Assembly (NCBI GenBank): GCA_036005125.1
Contig: DASYQV010000311.1
Span: 5,618-69,617 of the forward strand
Direction of reading: 5' to 3'
Source of the DNA: Vicinamibacterales bacterium
Lineage (GTDB): Bacteria; Acidobacteriota; Vicinamibacteria; Vicinamibacterales; UBA2999
DNA: 64,000 nucleotides
Shown: one piece after another, positions 1,962 to 63,810 of the stretch
Layout: each line of letters begins with the position of its first letter
Position numbering within the stretch: the stretch's first letter is position 1
Program-made: the position numbers and the translations under genes
The notes under the pieces: generated by a model
Database searches by the model: none
Seen by the model: the letters and a program-made list of their open reading frames with translations, nothing else
What the model was told of the DNA's origin: nothing

Positions 1962-2243
1962 GGTCAAAGGTCAAAGGTCAAAAGGCAAAGGTCAAAAGGC
2001 AAAGGTAAGGTCAAAGGTTTTGGGTCAAACGTAGAAGGCAAGGGCAAGGTACGGCTCTACCTGAGTCTTGGACCTTGCACTCAACCTTTGCCCTGAAACT
2101 TTTGACCTCACCTTTAGCCTTTGACCTCACCTTTAGCCTCTGACCTCACCTTTGACCTTTGACCTTTGACCTTTGACCTTTGACCTTTCACCTTTGACCT
2201 CTGACCTTTGACCTTTGACCTTTGACCTTTGACCTTTGACCTT
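1962..2243. repeat. Heptamer-armed hairpin/microsatellite: GGTCAAA-type words (left) and TTTGACC words (right, 13 consecutive units 2151-2241)
   Basis: Direct reading: left arm 1962-2035 GGTCAAA/GGCAAA words, apex near 2048-2061, right arm degenerate then 13 x TTTGACC (11 perfect) ending 5 nt before the dnaG ATG. Confidence 0.9.
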
Positions 2244-2246
2244 GAA

Positions 2247-4007
2247 ATGGCTCTGTTTCCTCAGCATTTCATAGACGACCTGAAGAACCAGGCGGACATC
2301 GTCGCGGTGATTCAGGACTACGTCTCGCTGAAAAAGGCCGGGGCCAACTACAAGGGACTCTGCCCGTTTCACGCGGAGAAGACGCCGTCGTTCCAGGTGA
2401 ACCGCGACAAGGGCTTCTTCTATTGCTACGGCTGTGGCGTTGGCGGAGACGTGTTCAAGTTCCTCGAGCTTCACGAGAAGGTCGGATTCCAGGACGCGGT
2501 CAGGCTGCTGGCGCAACGGTTCGGCATGCCGCTGCCGGAGATGGAAGCCACCGACGAGCAGCGGGCCAACACGGCCGAGCGCGAGGCGCTGCTGAAAGTG
2601 CACGAGGCTGCCGCTGCCTGGTTTCGCGCCCAGCTTGCGACAGCCGACGCCAGAATTCGGAATCAGCTCGCCGATCGGGGTATCGCGCCTGCGACCATCG
2701 ACGCGCTCGGGCTGGGATACGCGCCGACGCTGCGTGACGGTCTCCGGCAGCACCTCCTTGGCCGGGGTTTTTCGGAGGGGCTGCTGATTCGTGGCGGCCT
2801 GGTCGTGCAGCGTGACAACGGGAGCGTGGCAGATCGATTCAGGAACCGGCTGATGATTCCGATTTGCCGGGAGACCGGCTCGGTGATCGCGTTTGGCGGA
2901 CGCGCGGTGGACGCCGACCAGCAACCGAAGTATCTGAACTCGCCGGAAACTCCCGTTTACGTCAAGAGCCGCACACTTTACGGCCTGAACCTGAGCAAGG
3001 CCGCGATACGGGAGGGAGGGTTCGCGGTACTCGTCGAGGGCTACTTCGACTTCGCGCAGGTCTATCAAGCCGGTTTTCAGGCGGTCGTCGCCTCCTGCGG
3101 CACCGCGCTGACCGCGCAGCAGGCGCAGCTCCTCCGGCGCTTCACGTCGAAGGTCGTTCTCAATTTCGATCCGGATACCGCGGGTCAGGGCGCGGCCGCG
3201 AAATCCTCTGAACTCCTTGTATCAGAAGGATTTGATGTGAACGTGGCGCTACTCCCGAGCGGGGAAGACCCCGATACCTTTGTAAGGAGACATGGCCCTC
3301 GGGGTTATGCTGACCGGCTCAGGATGTCTCGGCCGTATCTCGAGTATTTGCTCGATCGGGCCGCCGCCGGTCGCGACTTGACGGGCGACGAGGGCCGGCG
3401 CCAGTTCCTCTCGAGCATGCTGAGCGTGGCCGCCAGGATCCCGGACTCCGCCGCGCGGGATCAGTTTGCCGACCGTCTGGCGCATAAGGCGAGGATTACG
3501 GAAGAAGTTGTTCGAGCCGAGATCCGTAAAGCCGCCGTCGCCAGGAGGACCACCCTGAGCCAGCGCGAGCTCCCCAACATGGGGCAGGCTAAGCAGGCTG
3601 AGAAGGCATTGATATGGGCGCTATTTCACAGCCCCGAGGAAGCCCTTGCCGCGCTCGATGCTGTCGAGGCCCAGGATTTGGAAGGTTTGGCGACGAGGTC
3701 GATCCTCGAGCTGGCCCGCGACGTGCACCGGGAGGGGGCACCTTTACCATCCGCATGGCTCGGGCGTCTAAGTGTGGTGGAGGCTCAGCTGGCTGCCGGC
3801 ATTGCGGCCGACCCGGCCCCTCCCGTTCTGGACCTGTCAGAATGCGTCCGGGAGTTCAAACGCCTGCGTTACGACCGTGAGCAGGCGGCGCTGCAGCGGG
3901 AAATCAACCGGCTCCAGGAGCTCGGCGCTACGGCGCACGGCGCTGAGATCAACGCGCTCTGGGCGCGGAAGCTCGAATTACTTCAGCGAATCGGCGGTTT
4001 GATCTAG
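2247..4007 (+). CDS. dnaG: DNA primase DnaG
   Basis: Zinc finger CPFHAEKTPSFQV..FYCYGCGVGGD, NSPETPVY, TOPRIM EGYFD and DPDTAG motifs; ATG 2247 (MALFPQHFIDDLK) preferred over in-frame 2229, which lies inside the heptamer repeat. Confidence 0.93.
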   Translation: MALFPQHFIDDLKNQADIVAVIQDYVSLKKAGANYKGLCPFHAEKTPSFQVNRDKGFFYCYGCGVGGDVFKFLELHEKVGFQDAVRLLAQRFGMPLPEMEATDEQRANTAEREALLKVHEAAAAWFRAQLATADARIRNQLADRGIAPATIDALGLGYAPTLRDGLRQHLLGRGFSEGLLIRGGLVVQRDNGSVADRFRNRLMIPICRETGSVIAFGGRAVDADQQPKYLNSPETPVYVKSRTLYGLNLSKAAIREGGFAVLVEGYFDFAQVYQAGFQAVVASCGTALTAQQAQLLRRFTSKVVLNFDPDTAGQGAAAKSSELLVSEGFDVNVALLPSGEDPDTFVRRHGPRGYADRLRMSRPYLEYLLDRAAAGRDLTGDEGRRQFLSSMLSVAARIPDSAARDQFADRLAHKARITEEVVRAEIRKAAVARRTTLSQRELPNMGQAKQAEKALIWALFHSPEEALAALDAVEAQDLEGLATRSILELARDVHREGAPLPSAWLGRLSVVEAQLAAGIAADPAPPVLDLSECVREFKRLRYDREQAALQREINRLQELGATAHGAEINALWARKLELLQRIGGLI

Positions 4008-4039
4008 CACAATTCATGTAGCACGGAGGAACGCGAACC

Positions 4040-5740
4040 TTGTCGATCGAAGAAAAATACGACGAAGTCCGCCAGCTCATTAACGTCGGCAAGGAGAAGG
4101 GGTATCTCCTCTACGACGAGGTCAACGAGCTGCTGCCGTCCGAGATCACGTCGTCGGAGGAGCTCGACGATCTGTTCAACGCGTTCGGCAGCGCAGGCAT
4201 CGAGGTCGTCGATTCCGACAAGGCGTACCGGGAGGACAAGGGCTTCGACCGCGAAGGGTCGGGCGACGAACCCGAGCTGGACCTGACACCGGGCGCGCTG
4301 GACAAGACGAACGATCCGGTGCGCATGTACCTGCGCGAGATGGGCACCGTGCCGCTCCTTACGCGTGAGGGCGAGGTGGCCATCGCGAAGCGGATCGAAC
4401 AGGGCAAGCTTGCCGTCATCAAGTCGATTTCGCGCACGCCGACCATCGCCGCGCGCATCATCGGCATGGGCGAGCAGCTGCGCGGCGGCGAACGGACCGT
4501 GCGCGAGCTGGTGATCTTCACCGACGAGGAGATCACCGACGATTTGATCGAGGAGCGTGCCCAGGCGCTTCTGCGGCAGATCGAATCGGTGAAGAAAGCG
4601 CGGCTGAACTACCAGAAGCTTGCGGAAAAGCTCGAGGCGCAGCCGAAGAAGGACAAGCGGAAGTACCGCCGCGCCCGCTGGAAGGCGCTGCGCGCCCGCA
4701 TCGAGGTGTCGCAGCTCATTCGCAAGATCGAGTTCACCGAGGCGGTCAAGCGACGTCTGGTCGACGAGGTCAAGGACGCGGTTGACGCGGTGCAGCGGGT
4801 GCAGCGCGAGGTGGACGTCATCGAGCGGCAGCTCAATCCCAAGGTCAAGGCGAAGGCGCCCAAGCTGAAAGAGGAAGATCGGAAGAACCTGCTCAAGAAG
4901 CAGAAAGAGATCAAGGTGCAGGTCAAGGCGATGACCGACGAGCTCGAGGAGACGCCGGAGCGGCTCCGCCGGACGATCGAGGTCATCGCGCGCGGCGAGG
5001 CGCAGGCGGAGCAGGCCAAGAAGGAGCTCGTCGAGGCCAACCTTCGTCTCGTCGTGTCGATCGCGAAGAAGTACACGAACCGCGGGCTGCAGTTCCTCGA
5101 TCTGATTCAGGAAGGGAACATCGGCCTGATGAAGGCCGTGGACAAGTTCGAGTATCGCCGCGGCTACAAGTTCTCGACCTACGCGACGTGGTGGATCCGC
5201 CAGGCGATCACCCGCGCGATCGCGGACCAGGCGCGCACCATCCGCATCCCGGTCCACATGATCGAGACGATCAACAAGCTGATTCGCACCTCCCGGGCCC
5301 TCGTCCAGGAGCTCGGACGGGAACCGACCTCGGAGGAGATTGCCAAGCGGATGGACATACCGGTCGCGAAGGTCCGCAAGGTGCTCAAGATCGCGCAGGA
5401 GCCGATCTCGCTCGAGACGCCGATCGGCGAGGAGGAGGATTCGCATCTTGGCGACTTCATCGAGGATCGTCAGGTCGTGTCGCCCGCCGAAGCGGTGATC
5501 AACCTGAACCTCAAGGAGCAGACCGAGGCGGTCCTCAAGACGCTGACACCGCGCGAGGAGAAGGTGATCAAGATGCGGTTCGGCGTCGGCGACGGCAGCG
5601 AGCACACGCTCGAGGAAGTGGGCCAGAGCTTCGCGGTCACGCGCGAGCGCATCCGGCAGATCGAGGCGAAGGCGCTCCGCAAGCTGCGCCACCCGTCCCG
5701 CAGCCGGAAGCTGAAGGCGTTCCTGGAGGGGCGCACGTAA
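4040..5740 (+). CDS. rpoD: RNA polymerase primary sigma factor (sigma-70 family, RpoD)
   Basis: Acidic region 1.1, [27 protein letters not shown] (region 2), [28 protein letters not shown] (region 4.2); TTG start 4040; follows dnaG as in the classical dnaG-rpoD arrangement. Confidence 0.95.
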
Positions 5741-63041: not shown

Positions 63042-63077
63042 GCATCACACTCGCTCGCGATTCTACCATCGTCATCC

Positions 63078-63722
63078 CTACTGGTGCCGCAGCCACTCGC
63101 AGTCGATCGCGAGCGGGCAGACGGCGCAGTGCGGCGAGGCCTCGGTGCACGTCGTGAGCCCGTGATGCGTGAAGTAGGTGGAGGCGGTCCGCGCCATTTC
63201 GAGATCGCCGCCGATCTCGGCCGCCAGCGCACGACGAACCGCGCGAAGAGCCCGATTGGCAGGAACCATCGCTTCGCGCGCGTCACCGCCATATCCGAGT
63301 CGACGGGCAACACGCAACGCAGGCTCGTCGAGGGGCACGAGCGGGTGAGCGCCCGCAAACAACAGCAGTCGAAGCGAAGACGCCCGTCCCAGGTGCGGGA
63401 CCTTGCGCGCCGCGCGTAGCGCCACCGGAAGTGGCGCACGCAGCGTCTCGGCCAGGCCCGGTTCCCGACGGAAAAGATCGACGCCGGCACGAAGCGCCTG
63501 GAGGCGCTCCTGTTTCATCGAGCCCGCGTGCGCGACGGCAGCATCGATCCTGCCCTCGGGCGCGCGCGCGAGCGCATCCGGCGTCAGCGCCGGCAGCCGC
63601 TTCAGCGCCGCGAAGCTCGCATCACGGCGAACAGGAGTCGTCCCGCGCTCCAGGACCTCCCAGACGTAGACGGCGAAAGGCTCGGATGGCGGCGTGGCCA
63701 GCGGGCCATAGAAAACCCGCAA
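63078..63722 (-). CDS. HhH-GPD / endonuclease III-like base-excision repair family protein with an Fe-S cluster loop
   Basis: C-terminal CTEASPHCAVCPLAIDC = C-x6-C-x2-C-x5-C, the EndoIII/MutY cluster spacing; helix-hairpin-helix-like middle region. Confidence 0.7.
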   Translation of the reverse strand: MRVFYGPLATPPSEPFAVYVWEVLERGTTPVRRDASFAALKRLPALTPDALARAPEGRIDAAVAHAGSMKQERLQALRAGVDLFRREPGLAETLRAPLPVALRAARKVPHLGRASSLRLLLFAGAHPLVPLDEPALRVARRLGYGGDAREAMVPANRALRAVRRALAAEIGGDLEMARTASTYFTHHGLTTCTEASPHCAVCPLAIDCEWLRHQ

Positions 63723-63751
63723 CCGTTCGAGCAGCCCCGAAAGCCGGGCCT

Positions 63752-63810
63752 GACGATTCGAGATTCGTGATTCGTGATTCGTGATTGTCCTTTCGTGATA
63801 GTCACGAATG
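63752..63810. repeat. GATTCGT-family heptamer run (4 units) ending in the small hairpin TTCGTGA-TAG-TCACGAA
   Basis: GACGATTCGAGATTCGTGATTCGTGATTCGTGATTG..TTCGTGATAGTCACGAA, between the EndoIII-like start and the M20 stop. Confidence 0.8.

Follow-up and report, generated by a model that had tools for sequence, protein, structure and literature searches.

The question raised by the stretch of DNA described here is how so many of its intergenic spacers have come to be filled by long hairpins, whose arms are tandem arrays of a seven-nucleotide word on one side and of its reverse complement on the other, and whether these structures have a role. The stretch, which is referred to below as the window, comprises 64,000 nucleotides of contig DASYQV010000311.1 (assembly GCA_036005125.1, Vicinamibacterales bacterium). 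Its GC content is about 65%, the nearest relatives of its RpoD protein are from Vicinamibacterales and Vicinamibacteria genomes (77-88% identity), and on these sequence grounds the host is placed among the Acidobacteriota, in class Vicinamibacteria. The results presented below show that the hairpins are inverted pairs of heptamer microsatellites, which are located at gene boundaries, change in length by slippage in unit steps in either arm, are duplicated and dispersed, and turn over rapidly. Further, we infer that the hairpins are transcribed and that their role is at the level of RNA. The overall explanation, that slippage-driven microsatellite palindromes act as hairpins at the 3' ends of transcripts or at processing sites, is one towards which we lean with moderate confidence.

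All of the hairpins which an initial annotation of this DNA had listed were found where it had placed them, and the enrichment over shuffled sequence that it anticipated is seen for the period as well as for the folding. Tandem Repeats Finder (TRF) reports 27 rows of period 7, with 2.1-13.7 copies, in comparison to a mean of 2.8 rows in 30 dinucleotide-preserving shuffles. None of the other periods that are not multiples of 3 is enriched by TRF relative to the shuffles, and the only further enriched period is 9, which occurs in coding DNA. If two period-7 arrays that lie no more than 200 nt apart, and whose consensus words are reverse complements of each other, are counted as a strict pair, then 9 inverted heptamer pairs are present in the window and 0 in 50 shuffles; the number of separated array pairs in the same orientation in the window is also 0. 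The minimum free energies (MFE) of the hairpins range from -21 to -131 kcal/mol, and the MFE z-score is below -3 in 18 of the 30 spacers of at least 55 nt, whereas none of 30 length-matched coding controls shows this. By inspection, clear heptamer-armed hairpins are present in 10 of these 30 spacers, related palindromes, which are weakly periodic or have a period of 8-11, in 4 others (29992-30160, 38000-38150, 27089-27278 and 28748-28885), and other palindromic repeat families in about 9. The resulting total of about 23 spacers out of 30 matches the earlier estimate of about 22 out of 28. The hairpin words of the window are AGGTCAA, ATTCKTG, GATTTGY, AGGAGNN, GGCTTCG, CTCGGGR and TCAGATT. The heptamer-armed elements, in the order of their occurrence, are as follows.

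1958-2243: giant hairpin in the mutS2-dnaG spacer, with a left arm of (AGGTCAA) x8.6 at 1961-2018 that continues in degenerate form to about 2046, and a right arm of (TTGACCT)n at about 2101-2243, in which TRF reports 13.7 copies at 2148-2243; MFE -131 kcal/mol, spacer z-score -9.5.
5741-5805: hairpin following rpoD, with a left arm of (ATTCTTG) x4.6 and the apex GATTCAAATC; it starts at the base that directly follows the rpoD TAA (5738-5740) and ends 5 nt before tRNA-Met.
7182-7278: hairpin between the convergent genes for RNase H (6750-7199, plus strand) and Cu-oxidase_4 (7261-7998, minus strand), with a left arm of (ATTCGTG) x4.6 at 7185-7216 and a right arm of (GAATCAY) x6.6 at 7230-7275.
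8467-8530: hairpin of the AGGAGNN family, starting in the TAG stop codon of the ACPS gene (8087-8467), with TAGGAGA as its first unit and the apex AGAGCGACCCGCGCTCT.
8697-8766: hairpin of the ATTCGTG family, overlapping the start of a gene for a 117-aa protein (8759-9112), with the apex GATTCAAATC and an irregular left-arm unit, GATTTCGGACTC.
9126-9234: hairpin between the convergent 117-aa gene (8759-9112, plus strand) and radical-SAM gene (9235-11013, minus strand), with a left arm of (GATTTGY/GATGTGT) x6.7 at 9128-9174 and a right arm of (AATCRCG) x3.1 at 9210-9231.
18862-18962: hairpin between murD and ftsW in the dcw cluster (minus strand), with arms of (GGCTTCG) x4.3 and (AGCCCGT/CCGTAGC) x3.6.
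19172-19190: orphan half-array of (GTGATTC) x2.7, which closely follows the stop codon of murD.
46351-46502: two tandem AGGAGNN hairpins (46351-46425 and 46426-46502) after an E1 dehydrogenase gene; the first unit of the first hairpin, TAAGAGT, holds the TAA stop of this gene (46361-46363), and the last 12 nt of the gene recur as a copy in front of the second hairpin.
49315-49418: hairpin starting at the final base of the stop codon of an ABC-2 permease gene (48512-49315), with arms of (CTCGGGR) x3.0 and (CCCCGAG) x4.4.
55245-55322: hairpin of the AGGAGNN family between the thiolase (54057-55238) and acyl-CoA dehydrogenase (55327-57129) genes of a beta-oxidation cluster, with the apex AGAGTGACACGTGACACTCT; MFE -52.6 kcal/mol, spacer z-score -8.3.
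63752-63812: array of (GATTCGT) x4.6 at 63755-63786, with a short right arm that is complementary to it; the stop codon of a minus-strand gene (63814-63999) is 1 nt away.

The manner in which these arrays change can be seen from metagenome contigs of the same species, which are 99.4-99.9% identical to the window and cover about half of it. Repeats contain nearly all of the indels that distinguish these contigs from the window. In L087 and L088, which come from two independent samples, the right arm at 7230-7275 has 6 additional units (42 nt), the left arm at 9128 is shorter by 14 nt in L087, and the left arm at 46360 is longer by 7 nt in L085. In L084, a third tandem copy of the hairpin 46426-46502 is present, adding 64 nt. 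The differences within the arrays are thus exact multiples of 7 nt, as expected from slippage, which the initial annotation had suggested as a generator of the repeats, and the heptamer arrays behave as hypermutable microsatellites that change by this process. However, the second process that it had suggested, viz. the templating of one arm by the other, is not supported for the current dynamics. If it operated, then changes in unit number in orthologous spacers should be matched in both arms, whereas all three of the unit-number polymorphisms (3/3) are confined to one arm. As each length change is in a single arm, the arms are not kept equal; they differ in the number of units (in L087, for example, 4.6 vs 12.6), and variant units do not follow a mirrored order in the two arms. 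Arm-to-arm templating could still have acted at the first seeding step. The degenerate palindromes at 29992, 38000 and 18862 show no variation among the strains, the hairpin 5741-5805 is identical in strains L087 and L088, and 49315-49418 is identical in L081-L083. Within the element at 1958-2243, where the contig L087 breaks, the arrangement of the units differs from that in the window. Short-read contigs also end inside heptamer arrays in other instances (the start of L087; the ends of L107, L144 and L152), so that these arrays interrupt the assembly of metagenomes, and metagenome-assembled genomes may contain too few of them.

Some simpler accounts of these sequences were rejected. The hairpins are not assembly artefacts, because identical sequences are found again in independent JGI, ENA and Logan assemblies. 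They also do not belong to a known RNA family, as in a search of Rfam 15 only tRNA-Met reaches the gathering score and the hairpins match nothing at E-values up to 0.5. The sequences GATTC, GAGTC and GACTC, which are forms of the methylation motif GANTC, occur inside several of the words. However, this motif was rejected as an independent signal: in coding DNA it occurs 196 times against 184 expected, and its excess in spacers is due to the hairpin words themselves. A polarity, in which the G-rich word always forms the 5' arm, holds for all 10 of the non-tied hairpins of the window (10/10), but it failed in L035, L039 and L099 and was dropped; among the matches listed from a metagenome sample the two orientations number 6 and 5. 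Lastly, stop triplets in the words of the 5' arms (TGA from ATTCKTG, TAG from AGGAGTT) are frequent, not universal, and they are not significant when the word families are taken as units.

The location of the hairpins in relation to genes provides the next part of the answer. The gene map of the window was derived from codon usage, and it agrees with the JGI gene calls on near-identical contigs. The genes occur in the following order.

From position 1: mutS2 (1-1941), dnaG (likely ATG at 2247), rpoD, tRNA-Met (5811-5883), a zinc-ribbon gene and the RNase H gene.
Thereafter: the convergent Cu-oxidase_4 gene, followed by the ACPS gene, the 117-aa gene and the convergent radical-SAM gene.
Minus strand: the dcw cell-division cluster, which extends from mraZ (near 28.6 kb) to ftsZ (11.3 kb).
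Thereafter: ychF and a glycosyltransferase cluster, then yqeY, murJ, an MFS transporter gene, a rhomboid gene and the E1 dehydrogenase gene.
Last: an ABC transporter, a TetR regulator and the beta-oxidation cluster.

At 11 of the 14 gene ends that were examined, the start of an array lies between -18 and +16 nt from the stop codon. The RNase H and Cu-oxidase_4 genes even terminate within the two arms of the hairpin that separates them, each on the TGA of a GATTCNT unit, and the arrays here encode the last five codons of both genes (SIRDS and SIHDS, respectively) together with the stop. Where a heptamer containing TGA is repeated, all three reading frames meet a stop codon within 21 nt. Several hairpins occupy an entire spacer and end 0-5 nt before the next start codon.

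Based on these positions, the hairpins could be regarded as intrinsic terminators without a U-tract, in which very long stems replace the usual combination of stem and U-tract in a high-GC lineage. Like such terminators, they are stem-loops that lie just downstream of stop codons and between convergent genes, and the number of canonical terminator-like sites in the window is not enriched, their counts in three 20-kb blocks (13, 11 and 10) being at the level expected by chance (11.2, 11.9 and 11.1 in shuffles). In addition, heptamer-armed hairpins follow rpoD in the window, in L018 (group 18) and in L035 (Pyrinomonadaceae), at the site where the Terriglobia relatives have classical terminators with a GC-rich stem and a U-tract. 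It is also known that in Xanthomonas transcripts start or stop at G-quadruplex-capable heptamer repeats more often than at control repeats (PMC4692102). However, none of the heptamer hairpins has a run of T after it, in accordance with the absence of a consistent U-tract in the initial annotation, and their stems are 2-10 times longer than those of intrinsic terminators, moderately AT-rich for this genome and repetitive. Purified bacterial RNA polymerases, including those of mycobacteria, need a U-tract for efficient intrinsic termination. Further, hairpins are also present inside clusters that are normally co-transcribed, viz. between murD and ftsW in the dcw cluster and between the thiolase and acyl-CoA dehydrogenase genes in the beta-oxidation cluster, and where a hairpin ends 0-5 nt from the next start codon there is no room for a promoter. 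Because of their occurrence inside operons and against start codons, the hairpins are probably not efficient terminators, and we consider it quite unlikely that termination of this kind explains them. At the post-rpoD site of other relatives, REP-like hairpins are found in L001, L002-L004 run directly into tRNA-Met, and L027 carries right after rpoD (11705-11850) a hairpin with period-8 arms (GGTCGCAG / CTGAGACC). In the case of the window, where the hairpin lies 5 nt before tRNA-Met, cleavage by RNase P would leave it as the 3' end of the mRNA.

The proximity of some of the hairpins to start codons could alternatively be interpreted as indicating that they are phase-variable regulators, in which a change in unit number alters the sequestration of a start codon or ribosome-binding site, or the spacing of a promoter, as upstream of hmw1A. 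Hairpin ends are near or over start codons in four cases (2243 vs the ATG at 2247, 8766 vs 8759, 46502 vs 46507, and 55322 vs 55327), unit numbers are polymorphic in natural populations, and an experimental precedent exists at hmw (PMC12721329). However, the neighbouring genes (dnaG, rpoD, ftsW and those of beta-oxidation) are housekeeping genes and not typical contingency loci, most of the hairpins are anchored at stop codons rather than start codons, and the observed polymorphisms lie in the arm far from any start codon, as in the case of 7230-7275, which lies between convergent gene ends. Phase variation is therefore, in our view, a very unlikely explanation.

The initial annotation had emphasized that the words differ between loci while no consensus is fixed. 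This is correct for several words, as AGGTCAA, GGCTTCG and CTCGGGA are each found at one locus only, but it does not hold for two others. The four AGGAGNN hairpins have a common apex, AGAGCGACACGTGCACTCT, and the ATTCKTG hairpins share a consensus of about 65 nt. Of the latter, the hairpin 8697-8766 and one that follows murD in L099, a contig of a sister species, are located at non-orthologous sites and yet are nearly identical over about 65 nt, inclusive of the irregular unit GATTTCGGAYTC; the hairpin at 5741 agrees with these two in its apex, GATTCAAATC, and in its length. The shared apexes and irregularities indicate that at least two word classes have spread as units, in the form of copies of about 65-75 nt. 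Due to this, the contrast that had been drawn with REP and MITE families was overstated, since at least two of the word classes are dispersed families with a shared apex and shared irregularities.

If the copies spread as units, then they could be small non-autonomous mobile elements of the MITE or REPIN type, which are moved by a transposase acting in trans and for which the heptamer periodicity is secondary. The heptamer element is itself an inverted repeat over its whole length. The near-identical copies at non-orthologous sites and the conserved apex of the four AGGAGNN hairpins both fit this account, and a presence/absence polymorphism is seen for other palindrome families, in the form of a 177-nt block that is missing in L082 and L083. 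However, when filled and empty sites of the window and L099 were compared, neither a target-site duplication nor a clean boundary of insertion could be made out, and no transposase or RAYT is present among the annotated genes of the window (JGI Pfam tables and ten open reading frames that were scanned). The three words that are restricted to single loci also speak against it, and the presence of unrelated words in orthologous spacers of other genera, described below, fits better with local origin than with one mobile family. Based on these considerations, mobility of this kind appears unlikely as the main explanation.

The comparison with more distant relatives shows how rapidly the hairpins are gained and lost. 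In the sister-species contigs L099 and L100, whose dcw genes show about 89-92% identity to those of the window, the hairpin 18862-18962 is missing, the corresponding sequence being 37 nt long in comparison to 136 nt in the window. Conversely, these contigs carry a complete ATTCTTG/ATTCGTG hairpin immediately behind the stop codon of murD. The window has only the half-array 19172-19190 at this place, which by this sequence comparison is what remains of a hairpin that the sister species has in full. The ftsQ-ftsA spacer of the sister species contains a (TCAGGCC)n hairpin, whereas GTAG-tagged REP-like elements are present there in the window. Tandem-armed hairpins with different words are found in L002, L015, L018, L035, L037, L039 and L043, and in one instance, L003 at 14980-15045, a hairpin between convergent genes has arms of (GATC)n. 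The spacer between the RNase H and Cu-oxidase genes is of particular interest in this regard: it contains ATTCGTG arrays in the window, (AGTAGCC)7 in L002 and (GGCACTG)4 in L003, while L001 has only a small GC hairpin, and in L002 this is the location of the single tandem-armed hairpin present in 19.8 kb.

The period of 7 is also not limited to this genome. When arrays with at least 2.8 copies were counted in rpoD-centred loci, period 7 accounted for 36 of 63 arrays in other Acidobacteriota (716 kb), 16 of these having an inverted partner, for 8 of 17 arrays in four loci from Vicinamibacteria, and for 5 of 91 arrays in other phyla (523 kb). The density of such arrays is greatest in the window (18 in 64 kb). 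In a scan of metagenomes for ATTCRTGATTCRTGATTC, arrays occur, among the matches listed, in many unrelated taxa with GC contents of 25-73%, and they are mostly unpaired.

A reading which needs no function at all has to be weighed against these results. In this reading the hairpins are a neutral or selfish by-product of a heptamer-slippage bias of the lineage, which acts on any small non-coding palindrome and whose products are tolerated without any role at the level of RNA. The following observations support it or weigh against the functional explanation that we favour. The mutS2-dnaG junction is no longer than 15 nt in the relatives L001, L002 and L027 in comparison to 287 nt in the window, and this insertion, as well as that in the murD-ftsW spacer (18862), indicates that a function is not essential at those positions. 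The polymorphisms that alter the length of one arm only are tolerated. The sense strand has the better MFE in 6 cases and the antisense strand in 7, so that there is no signal of selection on the RNA of one strand and no sign that G-U pairs are tolerated on the transcribed strand alone. Since some hairpins overlap or abut downstream start codons (8697-8766; 2243 vs the ATG at 2247), a 5' regulatory role, or no role, fits these cases equally well as a role at 3' ends. The dominance of period 7 across the phylum, whatever the locus, favours the by-product reading. In a broad metagenome sample 69 of 80 ATTCRTG arrays among the matches listed are without a nearby inverted partner by the strict test, although inspection of high-GC metagenome contigs reveals more paired arrays than this test catches. 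It should be noted as well that independent slippage in the two arms leaves unexplained, by itself, both the near-universal pairing in this genome and the period of 7.

However, the by-product reading does not account for the finding that the same convergent spacer, between the RNase H and Cu-oxidase genes, harbors unrelated heptamer hairpins in 3 of 4 genera, nor for the location there of the sole such hairpin in 19.8 kb of L002. It also does not account for the hairpins after rpoD taking the place of the canonical terminators of Terriglobia, and pure slippage would be expected to give many unpaired arrays in addition to pairs, whereas 9 inverted and 0 direct pairs are present in the window. 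A selected role of some kind is favoured by the positional equivalence with terminators at rpoD and by the fact that hairpins have been re-invented repeatedly at one convergent spacer. The neutral account nonetheless stays alive, given the insertions that are specific to lineages and the absence of asymmetry between the strands, and we regard it as a possible, though rather less than probable, explanation.

In considering the novelty of this architecture, which the initial annotation had thought to be undescribed, two precedents are of importance. In two species of Xanthomonas, 186 and 183 arrays of the heptamer GGGAATC have been described, of which 70-75 form convergent inverted pairs (Rehm et al. 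2015, PMC4692102). These arrays adjoin or overlap the upstream stop codon, at an average distance of 28 nt from the upstream open reading frame, and their length differs strongly between related genomes, whereas the type of repeat (single or inverted pair) is usually kept; the starts or ends of transcripts often coincide with them (PMC4692102). The Xanthomonas simple sequence repeats (SSRs) thus resemble those described here in being mostly intergenic tandem heptamers that form stem-loop pairs near stop codons, vary in length, and occur in a genome of about 65% GC. However, they consist essentially of one G-rich word, (GGGANTN)n, which is read as forming G-quadruplexes, whereas the window contains at least 6 unrelated words in 64 kb, most of them incapable of forming a quadruplex, with G-runs present only in CTCGGGR. 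Further, in the window, which is from another phylum, nearly all arrays are paired, the stems are longer (up to about 100 bp), and some of the hairpins are dispersed copies with a conserved apex.

The second precedent is the 5' untranslated region (UTR) of hmw1A in H. influenzae, where an (ATCTTTC)n repeat forms a long hairpin that is cut by RNase III, and where the hairpin, transcription and RNase III are all needed for change in repeat number and also matter for expression (PMC12721329). As in the window, a heptameric SSR serves here as an arm of a long hairpin, which at hmw is transcribed, and the number of units varies in populations. In contrast, hmw1A is a single 5'-UTR contingency locus in which the right arm is a G-rich region, whereas the window has many loci, mostly at the 3' ends of genes, and both arms are SSRs. 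The involvement of RNase III has been shown at hmw; for the hairpins of the window we infer it.

Of the other known repeats, the REP, BIME and REPIN sequences (PMC3116915, PMC3733652) are likewise abundant extragenic palindromes, which are also found within operons and form dispersed families with turnover among strains, and roles in stabilising mRNA 3' ends and in attenuating transcription have been suggested for REP elements (PMC3116915, PMC3733652). However, REPs have units of 20-40 nt with a fixed consensus, a GTAG/CGTC tag and a link to RAYTs, whereas the heptamer hairpins have SSR arms and many words. The GTAG/CGTC tag is absent from the ATTCKTG, AGGAGNN, AGGTCAA and CTCGGGR hairpins, GTAG being present in heptamer hairpins only by chance in CCGTAGC. 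The STRR sequences of cyanobacteria and the TAACTGA repeats of Beggiatoaceae form, for the most part, direct arrays without a partner, and are often located just upstream of start codons (PMC4679880); inverted sets are limited to 1 of 170 in 'Maribeggiatoa' and a few pairs in Nostoc (PMC4679880 and related literature). They share with the repeats of the window the unit length of 7, the intergenic location, the scattered phylogenetic distribution and a proposed origin by polymerase slippage. However, repeats of this type consist of one or a few genome-specific words without a partner, whereas in the window the inverted pair is the rule, the words are many and separated direct pairs are not seen. 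A general excess of heptanucleotide SSRs in prokaryotes, tentatively ascribed to polymerase slippage, is attributed by later papers to Mrazek et al. 2007. No description of such hairpins for Acidobacteria was found in the literature. The architecture is thus not an undescribed one, and the hairpins of the window are a multi-word, phylum-wide variant of a known, little-studied repeat type.

The spacers of the window contain in addition a number of other palindromic sequences. Those related to the heptamer hairpins are as follows.

27089-27278: related palindrome with a period of 8-9.
28748-28885: palindrome with period-11 arms, (TCTGACCCCGT) x3.7, in the divergent spacer upstream of mraZ and ychF.
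29992-30160: imperfect palindrome of 169 nt that fills the spacer between ychF and a glycosyltransferase gene, with a weak period of 7, viz. (TCAGATT) x2.1 and its complement; the length of this spacer is the same in three strain contigs.
38000-38150: another palindrome of this family, whose members are about 150 nt long, with about 2 TCAGATT units and about 71% column identity to 29992-30160.

The last two had been included in the initial annotation as examples of heptamer hairpins. The palindromes do exist, but with about 2 units they are barely periodic, and it is more apt to regard them as two copies of one palindrome family with a length of about 150 nt. In the same region, at 28664-28693 on the minus strand, is located the sole near-consensus sigma-70 promoter match of the window (TTGACA, 18 nt, TATCAT; 11 of 12 positions), which lies upstream of mraZ, where the promoter of the dcw cluster is expected.

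Families separate from the heptamer hairpins are also present. True GTAG-tagged REP-like palindromes occur in pairs (GTAGGCCGGGTCTTTAGACCCGGC and GCCGCATCTAAAGATGCGGCCTAC) at 13916-14046, 39222-39326 and 43650-43739. Two further families, one of the form CCCGTTATGCGG...CCGCATAACGGG and the other beginning with CTGGTCAGACCAGTCAAGGGCAGAGCCC, are often adjacent to each other (11263-11314, 16457-16628, 36849-37073 and 14911-14998), and the spurious sub-threshold matches to miRNA models in Rfam fall on these palindromes and not on the heptamer hairpins. A hairpin unit of 31 nt (CCGGAACGGCTTAACGCCGTTCC) is repeated in tandem 3.1 times at 39877-39973, where L098 has 62 nt (two units) fewer, and a single further copy of this unit is found at about 52520. 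The 177-nt block that is missing in L082 and L083 (52442-52618) consists of three other palindromic repeat families, and in these contigs the flanking genes are almost adjacent; to judge from the contigs, it is a presence/absence polymorphism of REP-like units within one species. Lastly, the murD-ftsW spacer contains at 19023-19165 a palindromic element of 141 nt that is 97% identical in L099, L100 and L101, in comparison to 89-92% for the flanking dcw genes. This element has no match in Rfam, and it could be either a conserved structured RNA or a cis element inside the dcw cluster.

Returning to the explanation that we favour, in which slippage-driven hairpins act at transcript ends or processing sites, the sequence of events may be envisaged as follows. 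A hairpin would originate from a short palindromic seed at a gene boundary, and slippage during replication would then lengthen or shorten each of its arms independently, 7 or 14 nt at a time. Tandem duplication of whole hairpins also occurs, and at least two word classes have in addition dispersed as copies of about 65-75 nt. Turnover is rapid, the hairpins differing in length among strains, in presence among sister species and in word among genera. Because the hairpins lie in or right after stop codons and between cistrons, they are expected to be transcribed, as near-perfect stems of 19-100 bp. In a genome that has next to no canonical terminators with a U-tract, such a stem would most likely serve as a boundary element at the 3' end of a transcript, forming a barrier to 3'-to-5' exonucleases once transcription, whether Rho-dependent or read-through, or the processing of a tRNA has taken place, and stems of at least 20 bp would be potential sites for processing by RNase III. 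A role at 3' ends receives indirect support from the canonical terminators that occupy the equivalent position after rpoD in other Acidobacteriota. The hairpins would in this case resemble in their role the REP/BIME sequences of E. coli operons more than they do efficient intrinsic terminators.

A more far-reaching possibility, which we put forward only tentatively and consider unlikely as it stands, is that Vicinamibacteria, and to a lesser extent other Acidobacteriota, have largely replaced canonical terminators with hairpins that renew themselves. If heptamer slippage is tied to hairpin formation, transcription or RNase III, as it is at hmw, then this process would keep making, extending and replacing the long stem-loops at gene boundaries, and the recurrence of hairpins with unrelated heptamer words in one and the same spacer of different genera would be accounted for. 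If this is true, the mutational mechanism itself supplies the boundary elements of transcripts. The variation in the arrays affects the quality of metagenome-assembled genomes and could be used for the typing of Acidobacteriota strains. Why bacteria should have an excess of heptanucleotide repeats has been a puzzle since 2007, and the lineage described here provides a dense natural system in this regard, with many words, strain variants, gain and loss, and re-invention. Finally, if the hairpins define or protect transcript ends, they would show what the boundary signals are in a high-GC soil phylum with few classical terminators, signals which annotation tools that rely on U-tracts would miss.

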